64,000 bases of DNA, taken from contig MQRK01238503.1 in the NCBI GenBank assembly GCA_001938485.1, forward strand, positions 1-64,000. Reading direction: 5' to 3'. Below the pieces are notes generated by a model, which made no database searches, was not told the origin of the DNA, and saw only the letters and a program-made list of their open reading frames with translations. A program made the translations under genes and the position numbers. Below are positions 3,800-62,750 of this stretch, in pieces (the stretch's first letter is position 1; the number at the start of each line of letters is the position of its first letter). Source of the stretch: Girardia tigrina (Eukaryota).

Positions 3800-4308
3800 T
3801 GTAAGTAACGTTTATGCCCCTTTCATAATTATCAAATTTAGAACTCATAATTTAACACCGCAATCTTTATTAATATCAACAATTAACATATTTAAACAAA
3901 TTTCTTGTTAATTCCAATTTTTCGCCAAAATTAATCTATTAAATGATTTTTCGATTAAATTTTGAAAATTTGCTCAATTTTAAACTTTAAAATAATTGTT
4001 ACATTTTTTACGATACTTTATCATAAAAACTAATTAATTTAAATTTACTATAAACCTTTTATTAAAATAAATTATTTCTTAAAATATTAATCCGTTAATT
4101 ATCTATTTTAAAATTTATTTAAACTTATTTCATAACTTTTATTAAAATATATCAATTGTTATGACTGCACGCATATTTTAAAAAAGTATTTATTTTTTAT
4201 GATATTTTTACTTTACATTTTAATTTTTTAATTTACTTTTTTTATATTTTCAAATAAAAATATAATAAACTATTTTTGCGAAATGTAAAGTTAACCTAAC
4301 CCCTCATA
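3800..4308 (-). mobile_element. Solo LTR of a Ty3/Gypsy element (TA...CA termini)
   Basis: 5-bp TSD AGTTT at 3795-3799 and 4309-4313; homologous to the LTR at 11017-11746 that follows an integrase end and PPT. Confidence 0.85.
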
Positions 4309-5462: not shown

Positions 5463-6400
5463 TGGACAGGAAACCGTGTCTCCACGATTTTTTAGGAAGA
5501 GAGGTGGACAGAGAACGGTAATAAGCGCCTTTCATTTTATGAATTTCCTCTAGCGTCTCATCATCAATCTCCAAAGTCGTCACTGTTTCCTCTACATCAC
5601 TCAAAGTCATATTTAAATGTGAATCAAAAGCATTTAATTTGCCTCGTAATTCTCTATCGTTTTTTATTTTACGTAAATTCGCTCATTTAAGCTCAATCGA
5701 ATCAGATCGAGTGGTTCATCGATTACGGAAATGTCAGAATTTAAAACGTTGCCAGAAATCGGATCCATTTAAATTTCGTTTATCAATTTATATTCTTTAT
5801 TCAAAACTCAAAAAAAAGAACGATTTGCCACTGAAAAATTCAAAACACTTTTATTTTTTAACGACACCTTTTTTGTAACTTTTTTAATAATTGTGATTGC
5901 AAATCACAATTAAAATTAGCACACACACTTTAACACACACATTCACCAATCATTTTAACATACACACACTATACATATCACATATAACTTACCACACGAC
6001 ACACGCAATCATACATAAAGAAAGAAATTACCAGTGATTCATTGGTATGGAAAAATTCATTGTGCTAAGAAATGAGGATCACCATTTAATTAACTCACAT
6101 TACATAATCAATAGAGACATTATTTCACAAATTCCATTATCATTATTGATTTGTTTTAATTTCAAGTATTTCAAACCGATTTATTTATTTTATTAGTTTA
6201 TTTAATTTTGCTTACGTTATTTGAAAATTAATTCCCTTTTTGCATGGTTAATTATGCTAGTGAATATAATTTAATAACATTTTTTTTATTTAACGTTTTG
6301 TCTTTCCTATTTTCACTTTATTTTTATTTAATCCATTATATTTTTTTATTTATAAATTTCTGGCAAAAATGTTCGGTCAAATTGGCAATTATCCGCTCCA
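5463..6400 (-). mobile_element. Cargo-carrying TGGA...TCCA element, copy A (938 bp)
   Basis: TSD CTAAT at 5458-5462 and 6401-6405; first 40 nt are 36/40 and last 35 nt are 32/35 identical to the ends of 52254-53348; shared CA-rich arm. Confidence 0.9.
5536..5768 (-). pseudogene. LSM3: Intronless, 3'-truncated LSm3 (U6 snRNP Sm-like protein) fragment inside element copy A
   Basis: [34 protein letters not shown] / [44 protein letters not shown]; one A missing in a homopolymer near 5667-5670; Sm2 C-terminus absent; missed by the ORF track. Confidence 0.92.
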
Positions 6401-6797: not shown

Positions 6798-9140
6798 TAT
6801 TTAAAATAATATTTCAAAATCATTTTTCGAAAAATATGATAAGATGATCAGATAACTAATTATATTGTAAATACAAAAACTTGTAAATCATAAAAAAATT
6901 ATATCCATTCTTTTTTCTGGCAGAACCCTATTTGTTATCTTTTGTAGAAGGGCAAATTACTATAACATTTATTAATATTAATTATTACTTTTTTATTTTT
7001 CTGTGTAATATAAACTACTTATAATTTTTAAGTGATCATTTTTTACTAATATTTTTCAGGAACATCGAATTTTTCGTTTTTTTCAATTTTGGGACCCTAA
7101 AAAGTTTTTTTGATCAAATTTTCACATTATCCTTTATTGCAATCGAAAATGAGTAAGTGTGTAAAGTTTGAAGAAAATTTGAGTAAAAAGCCTTCAAAAA
7201 TAGGTATCTAAATTCCATGGATACAAAAATTTGTTTCAGTTTATAAAGAATAAAAAATTACTTTTCTAAATAACAGATTTAAGTTTGAAAAGGAAAGAAT
7301 TTATATATTTTGTCTTCTTATATTGATAGAACGAGGAATTTTGTGTATCAGACGACTTTGTAATCAAAATTTTTGTGTTTGTCTGAATCATCTATCGCAC
7401 ACAGAAATATAAAGTAGCAAGCGTTGGACTAAATAACATGACTAAACAACACAGGAAGCTCATAAAAATCTAGCTTATCTATCTCTCTCGAATGGTGTAC
7501 CTATTTCTTTGACAAAAACCCTGGTATTTTCGCTTCTAATAAAAAAACTGAGTTGTTTAAATAAATTAAAATTAAAATTATTAAACGTGGGAAATTCAAA
7601 TGTGGTGAAAATGTCGATGAAAATAAATTCTTCCGATTTCTTACTTTTTTAATTTTTATAAATTGTAATCGAATGAAATCGAGCGGACCAGAGCTACCAC
7701 CGCATTGTTCAGCAAATGGGCATTCGGACAACCCACTTGGACGCGTCGAGTGGACCACCGACCAATGCGACGCCGCCGACAGGACCTACACATTTTGGCG
7801 AGCCGCTGTGGGTCGTTTGCGGCGCCGACGCGCGCCTGCGTATTGACCGTTGGTCACTGGAACCGACCGATCATGTCCGCCAGTGACAATTTCCCGCACA
7901 ATTAAGAGGTGCTGGTTGCCGCCACTCGGTTCGGCAGTCAGTACCAAAAATAAAAACGAGTAAAGTAAATACAAAATAACACAATTATTTGAAATTTAGT
8001 TTCAAAAAGGTTAATTTATAGTTGGTTTAAAAAAACCTTTCAAAATAAAATTTTAAGCGGTAAAGATTAAAGGAAATAACAAAATATATTTAAAAAGAAA
8101 AAATTTCAGTTAATTAAAATCATTTTTCAAAGTAGAAAATCAAATAATAATTTTTAAATTGTTTATGGTTTTGATTTCGATTAAATTCAAAATGGAAAAA
8201 ATAATTATCGTTTAATTCTTTTTCTCTATGTTTTTCAGATACACATAGACTGTAATGAAAAACGGATGAGACCCAGTGATTAATTTATGGGAGATTGGGT
8301 ATCCATGATATAAACGTGCGATTAATTAAGTCTAATGTACCTTGACAAATGAATCTAGTCTGCCATCCACTTAAGCGTATGGTCTAACAATTGCTGATTC
8401 TTTCCTCCAACCGAAGATGACACGCACTAACTCATTATTTCAAAGAAATTCCATTGAGAAAATTTTATACAATTATTTCTCGGAAAACTCTAAATTAACA
8501 GAATTTGTACATAAGTTACGTGTTTTTGTTGCTCTTCAATATCAGAAATGAGAACACATAAATGACTGGCAAATGATTGACTGAAATCGTTTTTTTTTCT
8601 GTATTCAAAAATATTTTAAATTTTTATTTAATTGGATAATTTGATTTGATTTTGTAAATTAATTACATATACTTTAATTTACGAATTATTATTTTTGGGG
8701 TTTCTTTTAAAATATTATAATAAAAATATTATAATTAATAAATAATAAAATACATTAATTTTTTGAAAACACAAAACATGCTTTTCATAATTTATGGTTA
8801 TTAATTTCGATGGATCGACCGTTATCATCAGACTAAAGTTTACATTAACATTTCTTTGGTTTATAAACCAATCGCATTTATAAACCTAAGAAATGTGTAT
8901 GTGATCATTATGTATTTTTTATCAATAAAATACTTTTTAAAAAGTTGAAGACGATGCTGTTTGCAAATTGATTTTATAATCAAAATAGAAAAAGACCAGT
9001 CATGTATGACGGAAGAGCTGAATTTTCTTCTTTGAAAGTTTATGTTTTAATTTTAAAATCATAATTATGATTTCTATTTAAATTCTAAAATATTTGAATT
9101 TGTGTTTCACTCACAATTTTGAATAATTCATATAAATCAT

Positions 9141-51377: not shown

Positions 51378-52253
51378 TTTTTCTTTTAACTTTACTCTAA
51401 TTATTTAATAATATTTTTTTACTTTACTTTAATCACTTTGGAATTATTTATTTAATTATTAATTTGATTTTACTTTTAATTATTTTTTAATTAATTATTT
51501 TATTTAATTTATTTATTTAATTCACTTTAAATTTATCATTTTTATTTATTCTTTTACTTATTTAATTTAATTTTACTTAATTTTATTTATTTAATGTTTT
51601 AATTTAAATTGGGCTCAAGTAAGGGTCAAAAATAATCGCAACGCGATCAATTATTAATTAACTAATTTATTCGAAACACATATTCCTCTAAAAAAACTTA
51701 CTCAGGAATGCCTAAATTAGTTGGACAAAAATTCTTTTTGATAAATTAAATAGAAGTGCCAATTAAATCCATAAATCTTAAATTATCATTCAATCAGAAA
51801 AACGAAAATGCATTTTTTTAAATAACAAATAAAGAAAAAAGGCTCATTCAAAATGCGGAAGAGTACCTGACGAACGAAAGAGCAGCGAAGAATTCGATTT
51901 TCACACAAATCACCTTTTTGATTTCTGACACCTGAGAACCGTGATCGAGCAAACTACACCGTAGTTGCATCACATCGAAACACATATTAATATCAGAATC
52001 GATTAAATTGTTTAAAATTGTGAATTTAAAATCGAATTTTGGTGATTTCTTTTTCGCTTAAATTAATATTGAAAAAAAAGAAAATTTTAATTTGCTAGTT
52101 TTTTTGAAAAAAATAATTGATAAAGAAATTTAGATAACTAAAAGATATTTGATTTTAAATTTTAACGTCCAAGTTAATCAGATATCAAAAGTAGCTTCAT
52201 ATTATTATTGTAGTAGTTCTAGTTAAAATGACTAAAAAATTTATCTTTATTAG

Positions 52254-53348
52254 TGGACAGGAAGCCGTGTCTCCGCGATATTTTAGAAAGAGAAGAATTG
52301 TTTCTCATTGTGCACGTCGGTTGAAAAGTGCTTTTCATTTTATTGAACAAAATATTCAGCGGAATCCCATCTCGTTTACGCAATTAAAATATGGCGATAT
52401 CCCAACCGAGAAAATGATGACATGCATCTTTATCATAGATCAACCGCACAATAAACGGGTGATTAATCGCCACCAAAATGTTGCGCTCCATTTGTGTTCG
52501 CAATCGATCCCTCAATTTTAATGAAGCTTTCCGCAACACTTTAATCGCATAAAGATTTCCGGAATGAATACCTTTGGTTTTTCGAACTAAATAAACCTGG
52601 CCGAATGATCCTTGACCTAAAATTCTCAATAACTGAAATTGTGACGGATCAACTTTTTCATTTTGATTCACTAATTCCGTCACATTGACCTCAGTAATCA
52701 ACTCATGATTGTCAAAATTAAAAACAAAATCCATTTAAATCGACANTGTTTCAAGTTTTCAAAAACTTATTTTTTAAATTGAATTAAGAGAACTCCTTTT
52801 TTTATTTAAAAGAAATTGGAAATTGAAATTGACAAATTCTCTTTTTTTAACGTTTTTTAACATTGAATTTAAAAATTGATTTAAATTTCACCGTTTTTGA
52901 AAATTGATTTAAAAAAATTGTGATCATTATTCACAAATAAATTTAACACATACACAACATACACACCTTCAGCCAATCCCAATCATTTACATTTCATTAA
53001 ACACAAACATACACACAAAACACGCAATCACATTCACACAAACAAAGACATACTTACATGCAAAGATTCATTTAATTACATAAATTAACAATGAGGCTCA
53101 CCACTTAGTTATACAATTATTTCCTCGAATTAATAGATCGATGAATATCGAATCGGAATCGGTGTCTGTTTTCTGTCGACAATTCACTCATTTCTTTTTT
53201 AATATATTTCATTTTAATTTAATTTGTTTTTTATTTATTTTACTTTTAACTTAATTAATTATTTAATTTATTAGGTTAATTATATTTTTTATTTATATTT
53301 TCCGGAAACTAGCAAAATGTTCGGTCAAATCAGCAATTCTCCGCTCCA
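52254..53348 (-). mobile_element. Cargo-carrying TGGA...TCCA element, copy B (1095 bp)
   Basis: TSD ATTAG at 52249-52253 and 53349-53353; termini and arms homologous to 5463-6400. Confidence 0.9.
52434..52734 (-). pseudogene. Intronless fragment of the p90 ribosomal S6 kinase (RSK) N-terminal kinase N-lobe inside element copy B
   Basis: [27 protein letters not shown]...[40 protein letters not shown], then unrelated sequence. Confidence 0.93.
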
Positions 53349-53749
53349 ATTAGTATTTTTGTTTATCTTGTAAATTTTGACATAGTAAAGGATTTGTTAA
53401 AATCATGTTCAAATCAATTTATATTCATAAGTTACTCAATGTACTCAATGAACTTAAGATTTTAACATCAGTAAAAAGATAGGAAATTTCCATTATAAAA
53501 TATATTTTAAAATATCACTCTAATTAATGAATATTTAAACAATTATGCTTCTTTGCTAACTACCACAAATCAGAACATACAGCTGGTGTGTAGTTTGAAA
53601 TTGACATTTAATTAAAATATTTGATACAACTAATATGGCATCTAAGTAAAGTTATTAATTTCATTATAGAATCCTTTGACATGAAACTTTTAAATCCAAC
53701 TTGTCTAAACAATTTGATGTAGAATTCAAAGCAGCAAACAATTAGATTT

Positions 53750-59270: not shown

Positions 59271-61850
59271 TGTTGGGGCAGATCGGAAGTCTTTCCGTTT
59301 ATCCCGATATGCTTAATATATTTTACTAATTAATACTATAATAGAATTTTGATTTCTGTCTGTGTGAAGTTCCCGATGATGAAAGTGATTTTTTAAAGGT
59401 TTTTTACATTTTTTATAATTAATTTTATTTTTATTTAAACTTTTTTGTGCCATTATTTATTTTTATTTTATAAATATTATATAAAAAATAATTAAAAAAA
59501 TTAACAACAATAAAAAGCATTCTAAAAAAGTTCTATTTGTAATATGAATTAATAATTCATTTTTTAAATGAATAAACTGCTGATTGTGATTTAATTTCAA
59601 AAATATATGTTTCGAGTGTGACTTTATTCTTTCCGACAACAAGCTATCGCGGCATCGATGAAGGGGATAAAATTCACAGATTCGGTGCGACTGTTCAAGG
59701 GCGATGGAGATTTCGAATCATGGTGCGGTATATTTGAAGCAGTGGCAACCATATGCGGGATTGACAAGGCGAACACGATACCCATGATGTTAGAAGGCCG
59801 TGCGTTCGAACTGTTCTCAAGAATGGAGAGCAGTGCCCAAGGTGATTACGAGTAGGTAAAATTGACGCTAATAGATGCGTTCGGACCAGATTCAAAAACC
59901 GCTTATGATGATTTCCGTACGAGAGTCCTTTAGCACGGGGAATCGATTGATGAATTCGTGGCAGCGTTAAGGTGATCTGAAAAGATTGTGTGTCACGATC
60001 AGGAGCCGCAAGAGCCACTGCTCAAACAAGCCTTTCTGGTGGGTCTTCCAGATGTAGTAGCAAGGCACATCACATCGGAAGTGGTGAAGGACGTTGCAAC
60101 AACTAATTCCAGTTGCGCGTGCTTTACTTCGCACTAATCGACCAAGAGCTGGAGCGACTGGTGCCGCAGCCGTGTCGGGGAACGACATCGCCGGAAAAAA
60201 AGGAGATGCCGACTTCTGTAGTGGCATCAGAAGTCAATTTGGTAAGGGCGCTGAGATGGTTCAGGAAAGGCCACCGGCAAAGCGACTGCTGGTCCGCACT
60301 GAAGTGGGTGGCGCATTCTACGGTCGCACGCCGGTCCGAGGGGTGTTTCATTTGCGGCGCCAGGGGGCATTGTTGTAAGGACTGCCTATGCAGAGGCCAG
60401 CCGGCGGAAAACGAGTAGCAGGATTTCACGGTTGCGCGAGTCGGATGCCTACGAGGCATTGTGCAAAATTAACTATAATTAATGTGCTAATTGACGGGCA
60501 GCGCGTGAGAGCGCTCGTGGATTCTGGGTGTTCTACGTCAATGATTGACGAGAAATCGGTAGACTCAGAAAAAATAGATCGAGTTAATGAATATTTGCAG
60601 ACAGTTTTCGGTCCGGCAGTGGTAGAGTGAGGTGCTTGGATAAAGCTCGATGTAGAGGGCCGGCGATTATCTTGCTGGACCCTGCTCGCAAAGGACCTAA
60701 GCGAGATCGGAGTGGGTATACTGTTGGGGATAAATGTAATAACTCAACTAGGAAGAATCGTAATCGGTGGAAATGGAATTCTGTCAGCTTTTGGGGCAAG
60801 CCAAAAGAGCAGGTTCACCCTCGAAAAGGAACTGCAGTCAAACGACCACAACAGGACATTTGTATCGGAGTCGAATGGGGTTCCTAGTAACGGTCCAGAT
60901 CGAAAAACCGATACGGATTTCACTGCAGAATGTGACGGGGTTTCTTGGTCTGTCAAGTGGCATTGGAAGGTGGAAAACCACCCCCGGTGCATAATAGTGT
61001 GACCCAATACGCATCTGGGAAGATTTACGAAGAAGAAGTTAGTGCAGAACTTCATGAGTGGAAAAAGAGAGTGTGGTTAATGTGAACGCCCGCGGAAGCC
61101 AACACTCCCACTAATGGCAATAGTTCAAGAAGCCAAAGAGAAAGTCCGTCCGGTGCTCGATTTCAGAGAGATGAACGAGTCAATATCGAGACACACAGCA
61201 GAGAGTCTTGTCTGTGGATGCAAGATCAGAAAGTGGCACCGCATGGGAAGTTATTTGAAAATCGTTGATTTAAGGCGTGCATGATTGTAGATCAAGGTCG
61301 ATGAGTCGCTTTGGCCCTATCAGGTGGTGATACATCAGGGCCGATCTTGGTATTTAACTCGGTTTGGGTTTGGACTGAGTGTTGCTCCGAAGATAATGCA
61401 GAAGATGCTGCGACATGTGCTCGGATCAGACCCAGTAGTTCAGTCCAGTACCGACGCGTACTACGACGACATCGTAGTGGCTGATGGCAGTACTTAGCGA
61501 TTTGATATGGAGGTCAAACTACCGGTGGCAATAGATGGTGGCCAAGTCCTGGGATTGGCGGTGAAAGCAGCGGTAAACGGAACGCTTCAATGGTGGCGTG
61601 ACGGTGATGTTCCGGAACTTCCAGATAAATTAACTCGCCACAGTCTTTTCGTATGGACAGTACGGTTAGTGGGTCATTACCCAGTGTACGAGTGGTTGAG
61701 ACCGGCTTGCAGTATCATGAAGAGGGTCGCTGGTGGAGGAAACTGGGATACCGAGGTCCAACCGGAAGCGACTGCAATGGCAAAACAGTTGACAATGAGA
61801 ATCAAAGCAGAAGACCCAGCTCGAGGCCCTTGGGAAGTCCCAAAGACTGA
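59271..61850 (+). mobile_element. GC-rich LTR retrotransposon, decayed gag-PR-RT with candidate 5' LTR 59271-59641
   Basis: CFICGARGHCCKDC, ALVDSGCS, KVRPVLDFRE, TRFGFGLSVAPKIM, YYDDIVV, LVGHYPV..WLRPAC. Confidence 0.85.
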
Positions 61851-62394
61851 GATTTTATGTAATAATGTAGAATTATCTAGATCTCGAGAATTCTTTGTGA
61901 AAGGTGCTGTGTTAGATGAAAATATGCAGAAGTTATTAATATCCGATGATTTATTTTTATTTATTGGGGATAAACTGAAAATGGCAGAGAAAGATTTATT
62001 AATTTGTAATTCTTTAGTTACTGCACATGAAGGATTTATATGGGTTCGAATATATATATATATATATATNNNNNNNNNNNNNNNNNNNNNNNNNNNNNNN
62101 NNNNNNNNNNNNNNNNNNNNNNNNNNNNNNNNNNNNNNNNNNNNNAATAAAAGAACTCTTATTTTATTTTATAAAAATATATTTATGTATTTACAATTAA
62201 TTACAAATTCAAATGAAAGATTAGTGTTTTATTTGGCCCCTGGCCGATTTTATATTAAACTCCGGAGCCTTTGCGACAACTCGGGTTGATTGAAGTTTTT
62301 GTAAGTTTTTCTGTCACACTTTACAGCGTGTTTCTTTTTTTATATAAAGATATGAGAATTTTAAATAACTACACTTTATATACTAATTATTACT

Positions 62395-62750
62395 TTTGTT
62401 TCCTTTTATCTTTTAGACACTATTTCAGTGTTATTTAACCTCTATGTTATCTTTTGTTGCCTTTATCTTTTAGACACTATTCCAGTGTGATTTAACCTCT
62501 GTGTTATCTTTTAGACACATATCCAGTGTGATTTAACTTCTGTGTTATCTTTTGTTGCCTTTATCTTTTAGACACTATTCCAGTGTGATTTAACCTCTGT
62601 GTGTTTTTCATCATTTTACTCTATCTTTATATATGCGTACCGTTGATTGGAATTCTTTTGATCCGATCAATCGGTATTTAACGAACTATAAACAAGATGG
62701 TTGAACTATAATAGTATTTAACGAACTATAAACAGGATGGTTGAACTATA
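62395..62750. repeat. Tandem repeats: ~55-bp unit about 3.5 times, then ~40-bp unit twice
   Basis: TTTTAGACACTATTCCAGTGTGATTTAACCTCTGTG units; GTATTTAACGAACTATAAACARGATGGTTGAACTATA twice. Confidence 0.8.

Follow-up and report, generated by a model that had tools for sequence, protein, structure and literature searches.

In the genome of Girardia tigrina, four joined exons of an RSK kinase gene lie inside a solo LTR of a BEL/Pao family, and we consider it somewhat better than an even bet that they came in when RSK exon 4 was joined, probably by trans-splicing, to a cryptic acceptor close to the 5′ end of the element RNA and the resulting hybrid was reverse transcribed. More tentatively, we propose that the whole family may run on borrowed starts, where the front of its RNA is repeatedly replaced by spliced host 5′ ends that become fixed in the LTR, Gag is made from the host ATG through the PBS, and ubiquitin is a host-cleaved spacer. 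The window is the whole stretch of 64,000 nucleotides in which the RSK exons were found.

The carrier LTR and its RSK exons

The carrier occupies 52254..53348 on the minus strand (1,095 bp, TGGAGCGG...CCTGTCCA, ends common to the copies) and lies between two copies of the 5-bp TSD ATTAG, at 52249..52253 on the left and 53349..53353 on the right. TSDs of BEL/Pao elements are short, about 5 bp. Copies of the present family are bounded by TGGA...TCCA and a 5-bp TSD; among the 39 complete LTRs that lack both PBS and PPT, this TSD is perfect in 31 and has at most one mismatch in 37. A purine tract (PPT) precedes the LTR 5′ end in 165 exact pattern matches and the PBS TGGTGGCCAAGATGG follows the LTR 3′ end in 69, with none of either in the controls; two LTRs bearing RSK run directly into the PBS (L027, L138). 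Beside family LTRs, Pfam named the gag domains DUF1759 and CCCH (L121-L123), the protease DUF1758 (L122) and the pol domains RVT_1, Peptidase_A17 and DUF5641 (L118), while an integrase core was not named by Pfam in the internal DNA of the family. Because PPT, PBS and gag-pol adjoin the same ends, with a TSD, we read the window element as a solo LTR, its superfamily being assigned by the gag-pol domains and the LTR architecture. The LTR nature of the "element sequence" that the earlier note had recognized around the kinase exons is thus established, although that note had missed it together with the older-cargo tail and the Gag frame described below. The redundant assembly holds 1,620 exact LTR 3′-end matches; in L122 the LTR fronts match and the 3′ LTR is truncated, and the two LTRs of L123 differ in a fragmented assembly.

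Most copies stand alone with a TSD, which would also suit a capture at the DNA level, through a Helitron or a non-autonomous DNA transposon, followed by loss of the introns. Yet no terminal inverted repeat extends past TGGA/TCCA, these very ends adjoin the PBS, PPT and gag-pol, and introns are precisely lost in four cargos, all of which leaves this origin almost no credit. Within the window, no element-end arms were found among the 25 longest inverted repeats listed, and no tRNA gene was found in its 64 kb.

Ahead of the kinase exons, the LTR front (52781..53348, minus strand) comprises the conserved 45-bp end, an AT-rich block and a hypervariable stretch (about 53100-53190). It likely corresponds to U3/R, and it also holds the motifs GTGAGCC and TCACAAT and an AATAAA about 25 nt ahead of the cargo; as a marker of R/U5, AATAAA was dismissed since it is too frequent in AT-rich DNA to count. 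The same hypervariable slot is seen in 89 LTR fronts, where its sequences form 45 clusters; 57 bp of the window stretch match near one end of 2.4-kb contigs from two runs, and in L122 it resembles a coding-sequence end with a stop. Possibly, it is a second capture slot. LTR bases 20-30 (TTTGACCGAAC) recur as their reverse complement, GTTCGGTCAAA, just ahead of the PPT, as seen at L042 202-224, at L056 and in the PPT matches, so a hairpin could span the PPT/LTR border. Elsewhere in the window, the interval 59600-62000, GC-rich at 0.46-0.51 and containing a short gag-like frame (59622-59855), is probably another retroelement, and tandem repeats occupy 62393-62602.

The carrier LTR contains an ORF of 116 aa (52384-52734, minus strand) that matches Pkinase in Pfam (E 1.2e-9) and RSK chains in PDB over residues 12-100 (E 3.8e-31), the best longer relative being a fluke RSK at 65% identity. 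By these matches the ORF is assigned to the N-lobe of the RSK N-terminal kinase domain; the C-lobe is missing from the cargo. Searching the 1.43-Gb genome returned 117 protein matches, including dozens of near-full copies and a split match on four redundant contigs, which is the parent RSK locus (G000:C185313, here L031, with the redundant contigs C27495, C114816 and C145697). Many loci of this assembly are duplicated on two to four near-identical contigs, and genome-wide counts are therefore inflated. A second RSK-like gene, which also contains introns, was observed at G000:C211884 2130-2261 and 74203-74589.

Alignment to the parent resolved four exons, all on the minus strand, where the earlier note had expected about three. 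Exon A (52714..52780; parent L031 3904-3970) comprises a 46-nt leader and an in-frame ATG of its own (MDFVFNF), exon B (52597..52713; parent 4020-4136) reads DNHEL...SFGQ, exon C (52515..52596; parent 4198-4279) reads VYL...LK-L with the AIK lysine, and exon D (52434..52514; parent 8093-8173, then GTAAGATT) ends at the phase-1 donor TAT-G. The exons in the parent measure 21 (coding part), 117, 82 and 81 nt, and the introns between them, of 49, 61 and 3,813 bp and all GT-AG, are each precisely absent from the window cargo, which has no poly(A) tail. Two of the guessed intron sites, SFGQ|VYL and LK-L-RDR (phase 1), exist as such, and an additional lost intron lies at F|D. Homology to the parent ends exactly at the phase-1 donor TATG|GTAAG, with GTAAGATT after TATG, which bears out the reading of an intronless kinase cargo ending at a phase-1 exon end. 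The expected continuation AFQTEGK was likewise found, for parent exon 5 starts CTTTTCAAACT (AFQTEGK) beyond an 8,475-bp intron 4, and public parent-mRNA contigs of runs X5 and X8 read AFQTEGKLYL past exon D. Intron 4, skipped at the joint, is the longest intron next to or within the spanned exons. A comparison with the parental gene had been proposed as the check, and the parent indeed has introns over the span and a donor that matches the joint. The main RSK mRNA contigs begin with a different upstream exon than the cargo, which makes cargo exon A a putative minor first exon within an intron of the main isoform.

The 116-aa ORF ends at a TAA (52384..52386, minus strand) where the family reads GAA. 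This change is carried by one of the 24 insertion sites examined, and all three public runs with cover have a sense codon at the position. Without it, the frame of the family at the RSK tail continues to the LTR end; since the stop is private to the window copy, the length of the ORF is an accident. The remark that the ORF is still open is hence misleading.

For the state of the copies, 24 distinct insertion sites were kept by flank from 33 usable RSK copies, with 93.0-98.7% identity to the coding stretch of the parent. Their 85 private changes comprise 24 synonymous ones against 24.0 expected and 6 stops against 5.3 expected; the shared changes are 8 synonymous, 10 non-synonymous and 1 stop. 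A 45-nt deletion runs through the kinase core in 3 of the 24 sites. No contig bridging the joint between RSK and the tail was found in 4 runs, a search of contigs only, which cannot show absence; the shares of the public runs are small (0.06-0.18) and their RNA status mostly guessed, and no inference on habitat or level is drawn from them. Private changes in the RSK copies are neutral, with no sign of purifying selection on the copy. A selected retrogene, or a source of small RNAs acting on the parent RSK, is improbable for these copies. At least 24 insertion sites with 93-98.7% identity could yield matching small RNAs, and the shared changes lean synonymous; nevertheless, the neutral private changes, the six private and one shared stops, the core deletion, the missing C-lobe and the lack of a bridging contig in the 4 runs speak against it. 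The proposed comparison of substitutions between cargo and parent indicated neutrality rather than selection, and the suggested truncated kinase peptide found no support in view of these neutral changes, the private stop and the 4 runs. A functional peptide from the window copy is unsupported; as a solo LTR the copy is decaying, and nothing in it points to function.

The joint behind exon D and the route of capture

Downstream of exon D, the LTR continues into the remnant of an older cargo, gene Y (52308..52433, minus strand; parent G000:C250014), entered just past an internal CAG of its exon 1, and then into the shared LTR 3′ end (52254..52307, minus strand, defined by comparing copies), which reads ...SKISRRHGFLS and is similar, in its first part, to the end of the Sec22-like cargo. 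When 69 LTR rows were aligned, one joint base proved common to all 45 rows bearing RSK, and 20 of the 24 rows free of RSK have AG at this base, mostly TTTTCCCGGCAG. Copies free of RSK read ...CCCGGCAG| at the joint, and the parent exon 1 of gene Y carries the AG at this site with no intron there. The joint sequence in RSK-free copies is, as read from these letters, a cryptic acceptor inside the older captured gene Y. Its CAG is one of two in-frame YAG among 104 in-frame positions, a rarity that favours splicing.

No LTR piece is present in the whole 8,475-bp RSK intron 4 (an assembly contig with no N), and cis-splicing from an LTR in that intron was rejected on this ground. Splicing would then have been in trans, or from a lost allele, or from further downstream. 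The earlier note had spliced exons joined from a donor into element sequence; the donor joint and an AG acceptor agree with this, although splicing and a switch of reverse transcriptase (RT) give the same letters.

Indeed, an RT template switch without splicing at the joint is a close contender which we hold at somewhat less than an even chance. The enzyme would have jumped, at G-ATAAAGAT against G-GTAAGAT, onto an RSK RNA that had lost introns 1-3 by splicing and still contained intron 4, whole or shortened, with a back-jump at the slot start, the CAG being coincidental. Among the 104 in-frame positions, the ATAAAGAT that follows the joint ranks first in similarity to the RSK intron 4 start (GTAAGAT), and this similarity favours a switch onto intron-retaining RNA; moreover, recipient letters are kept in the overlap, so that the predicted product equals the observed sequence. 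Two other cargos add to this, as the Sly1 joint copies an intron start without AG and the Rpn8 joint is a fuzzy match in mid-exon, and microsimilarity occurs at 25 of 29 fly junctions in the part of PMC5131818 used here. On the other hand, an in-frame YAG at the exact base is expected in about 2% by chance, an intron-retaining RNA would be needed in the particle, and the similarity at the RSK joint has one mismatch and one gap; 2.4% of slot 10-mers match the intron 4 start as well as the joint does. The 5′ cargo joint shares AATTT..AA by eye, and the microsimilarity of the 3′ joint is fuzzy and coincident with the splice signals. A switch from mature RSK mRNA was rejected because exon 5 shares nothing with the tail, the two having no homology.

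Three of the four cargos with a known parent end at most one base from an exon end, with or without AG. This would be accounted for if RT had jumped onto the free 3′ end of a 5′-exon splicing intermediate (exons 1-4) through one-base G pairing, but the extra G and AATTCT match at Sly1 and the Rpn8 joint would go unexplained. Such intermediates are also nuclear and short-lived, and we regard this route as improbable, marginally more so than a selected retrogene.

Splicing onto the element RNA has, from the sequence at the joint, about an even chance of being the route for RSK. As a general route it has evidence against it, namely the mid-exon end of Rpn8, a Sly1 recipient without AG and an AG in only one of five recipients of Y. 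Given that three of the four cargos end at donors and RSK alone clearly meets an acceptor, more than one capture route probably exists.

In the splicing scheme that we favour for RSK, splicing would swap the front of the element RNA for host exons, and the tRNA-primed strong-stop DNA would extend through what remained of the slot and up to the 5′ end of the RSK exons before jumping back to the element at the AT-rich microhomology AATTT...AA at the slot start. Both LTRs would inherit the cargo, and recombination between LTRs would leave solo copies. Copying to the cap is not supported for RSK, because cargo exon A is not the main first exon. Repeated captures would layer the cargos with the newest in front, as in Rpn8-RSK-Y-Sec22. 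Only in-frame captures would spread, probably because the cargo ATG would be the first encountered along the genomic RNA and would have to read into Gag, and ubiquitin would allow a host protease to remove anything ahead of Gag.

A slot of host 5′ ends in one frame with Gag

The RSK exons share their place with other host genes. Nine host 5′ ends named by Pfam occupy the LTR slot, all in one frame: JAB/Rpn8, ankyrin, USP8, Longin-Synaptobrevin, 14-3-3, Sec1/Sly1, Usp, LSM and RSK, of which the Longin-Synaptobrevin cargo is taken by us to be Sec22-like. Intron-containing parents were found for all four cargos for which they were sought (RSK, Y, Sly1 and Rpn8), and introns are precisely lost in every one of these. 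The Rpn8 cargo lost three introns, including one in the 5′ UTR, and joins RSK in mid-exon at a fuzzy in-frame match. The Sly1 cargo lost at least two introns and ends at a donor; its recipient has no AG, and the recipient LTR at this joint resembles an intron start (top 0.2%). The cargo of gene Y ends at the exon-2 donor, with AG in one of five Sec22-type recipient copies, and other LTRs contain exons 1 and 2 of this gene spliced together, without the 11-kb intron.

Layers with the newest foremost were seen as Rpn8 over RSK, RSK over Y, Y over Sec22 and LSm3 over 14-3-3. The last of these is in the window itself, where a second solo LTR of the same family (5463..6400, minus strand, TSD ATTAG) carries an LSm3-like cargo joined to a 14-3-3 remnant; the LSM domain was named on its sister copy L160, and there is no AG in the recipient at this joint. 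The RSK cargo begins in a minor exon, and those of Rpn8 and Y begin in 5′ UTR exons. RSK, Rpn8 and Y each start after the same AAAAG(G)AGTTCT...AATTT stretch, similar to their own first bases, and this shared start fits strong-stop DNA that would leave the host 5′ end and re-prime at the R/U5 border.

Gene Y is the commonest cargo, with 1,295 first-look candidates; it gave no match in Pfam, in PDB or among longer homologues, only a sub-threshold Sec23_helical in Pfam. A 1.3-kb contig that contains the tail behind the RSK exons may be its mRNA or LTR sequence, since the continuation of the contig also occurs in LTR copies. A family LTR front lies about 12 kb upstream of gene Y on the same strand (G000:C250014; L222, L225; L223). 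L144 and L167 have an unnamed cargo with a long ORF that does not follow the shared frame where the LTR ends, and in both copies the spacer ahead of the PBS is one base shorter. The cargo at L157 4317-4496 (minus strand) has no Pfam match; to us it looks like the N-terminal CH domain of EB1/MAPRE.

The common frame is evident at the LTR ends, of which 102 of 128 are open for at least 60 codons in the cargo frame and 2 and 0 in the other frames, the copies being related and non-independent. Among 30 segments chosen by hand from 197 clusters, Pfam matches fell on 14 of 23 segments in the cargo frame and on none of 7 in the others. Past the LTR, the cargo frame crosses the PBS (WWPRWG) and a repeat leader and goes on to an HSP90 fragment, ubiquitin and Gag. 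In L137 it is open from the LTR end to Gag, over 425 aa with a short N run; L133 has no stop in it as far as ubiquitin, nor do L129 and L163 as far as HSP90, and L142 is open from the 14-3-3 ATG through 162 aa of LTR frame and a further 161 aa to the contig end. HSP90 and ubiquitin fused ahead of Gag after the PBS were observed in L121-L123, L137, L143 and L156. Between PBS and HSP90, the frame is stop-free in 4 of 25 copies and the distance is in phase in 9 of 25, which is the chance level, and no single copy among those examined is intact from the cargo ATG to the end of Gag.

The ubiquitin ends in LRLCGG in 12 of 22 copies, and RLRGG is kept in 3 and GG in 19 of the 22. Many copies retain the own Met of ubiquitin and one subfamily is without it; as a side observation, two ubiquitin-Gag subfamilies can be told apart, one without Met and mostly with R or another residue at position 74, the other with Met and C. 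From the open frames, borrowed host starts likely open translation of the capsid protein of the element. We further propose, with a chance near but not above even, that a Gag precursor begins at the host ATG and that a host deubiquitinase trims it behind ubiquitin. Open frames would likewise be kept if they spared the RNA from nonsense-mediated decay, and internal Met codons could start Gag without any cargo.

Relation to known captures and significance

Spliced partial mRNAs flanked by LTR-element sequence are known from LTR-mediated retroposition (Tan et al. 2016, PMC5131818), and one of the fly cases in the portion of that paper considered here involves the Pao element BATUMI. Multi-gene chimeras, further spread and in-frame ORFs are likenesses with those flies, and microsimilarity at the joints may be another. 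However, in every fly case described there the retrocopy took the place of part of the internal ORFs, whereas the cargo here is inside the LTR, and the Girardia family spreads as solo LTRs, is overwritten repeatedly from the 5′ side and has its frame in common with Gag. Similarly, the 5′ chimeras of mRNA and LINE-1 (PMC13174262, as far as it was covered) resemble the RSK cargo in a donor end, an element acceptor, a long next intron and no source element in the gene. These chimeras are cis- or trans-spliced single insertions made by non-LTR TPRT, with poly(A), long TSDs and promoter gain, and the RSK carrier differs from them in being an LTR element with a PBS, a 5-bp TSD and lineages of many copies, and in lacking the marks of TPRT.

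Ubiquitin insertions of cytopathic pestiviruses (PMC8310069, in part) offer a parallel to the ubiquitin-Gag fusion, with captured host ubiquitin just before a viral protein and host hydrolases cutting after it; cleavage is demonstrated there, while for the ubiquitin-Gag of the present family, where most copies read LRLCGG, we infer it. In the sections of PMC3118150 consulted, BEL/Pao elements, among them those of the Flow superfamily from planarians and cnidarians, have the same gag/pol set and LTR architecture; ubiquitin has 0 occurrences there, and host cargo in LTRs is not mentioned. The giant Gypsy elements Burro/GYPSM1 of planarians are, in the part of PMC6431247 at hand, likewise LTR elements of flatworms with host-like domains, including a ubiquitin/SUMO-like one, in the Gag polyprotein. 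Yet they are Gypsy elements of over 30 kb with fixed domains in ORF1, and no exchangeable LTR slot is described for them in that part. A plant review (PMC13317346) mentions, in the text covered, only retroelement sequence entering an LTR. No account of serial capture of host 5′ ends inside an LTR or of a ubiquitin-Gag fusion was found in the literature covered, Repbase, supplements and closed journals being outside this scope. RNA-level capture by LTR elements is already known, and within the parts of these sources used here it is the LTR-internal, recurrent and frame-keeping slot that appears new.

Gene capture by LTR elements has been described as accidental, with internal genes replaced and the element crippled, whereas here capture is recurrent, falls on one LTR slot and in one frame, and has spread with the family. 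If the frame feeds Gag, host 5′ ends would belong to the life cycle of the element. The layered joints provide many datable, parent-matched events in one genome, which makes splicing versus switching directly testable. If our reading is true, the LTR would work as an in-frame gene trap, renewing itself and tolerating any in-frame N-terminus, and more than a thousand copies would hold a record of serial exon shuffling. Moreover, the hundreds of near-identical 5′ ends of household genes matter for piRNA cross-silencing, for RNAi off-targets and for annotation in Girardia tigrina.
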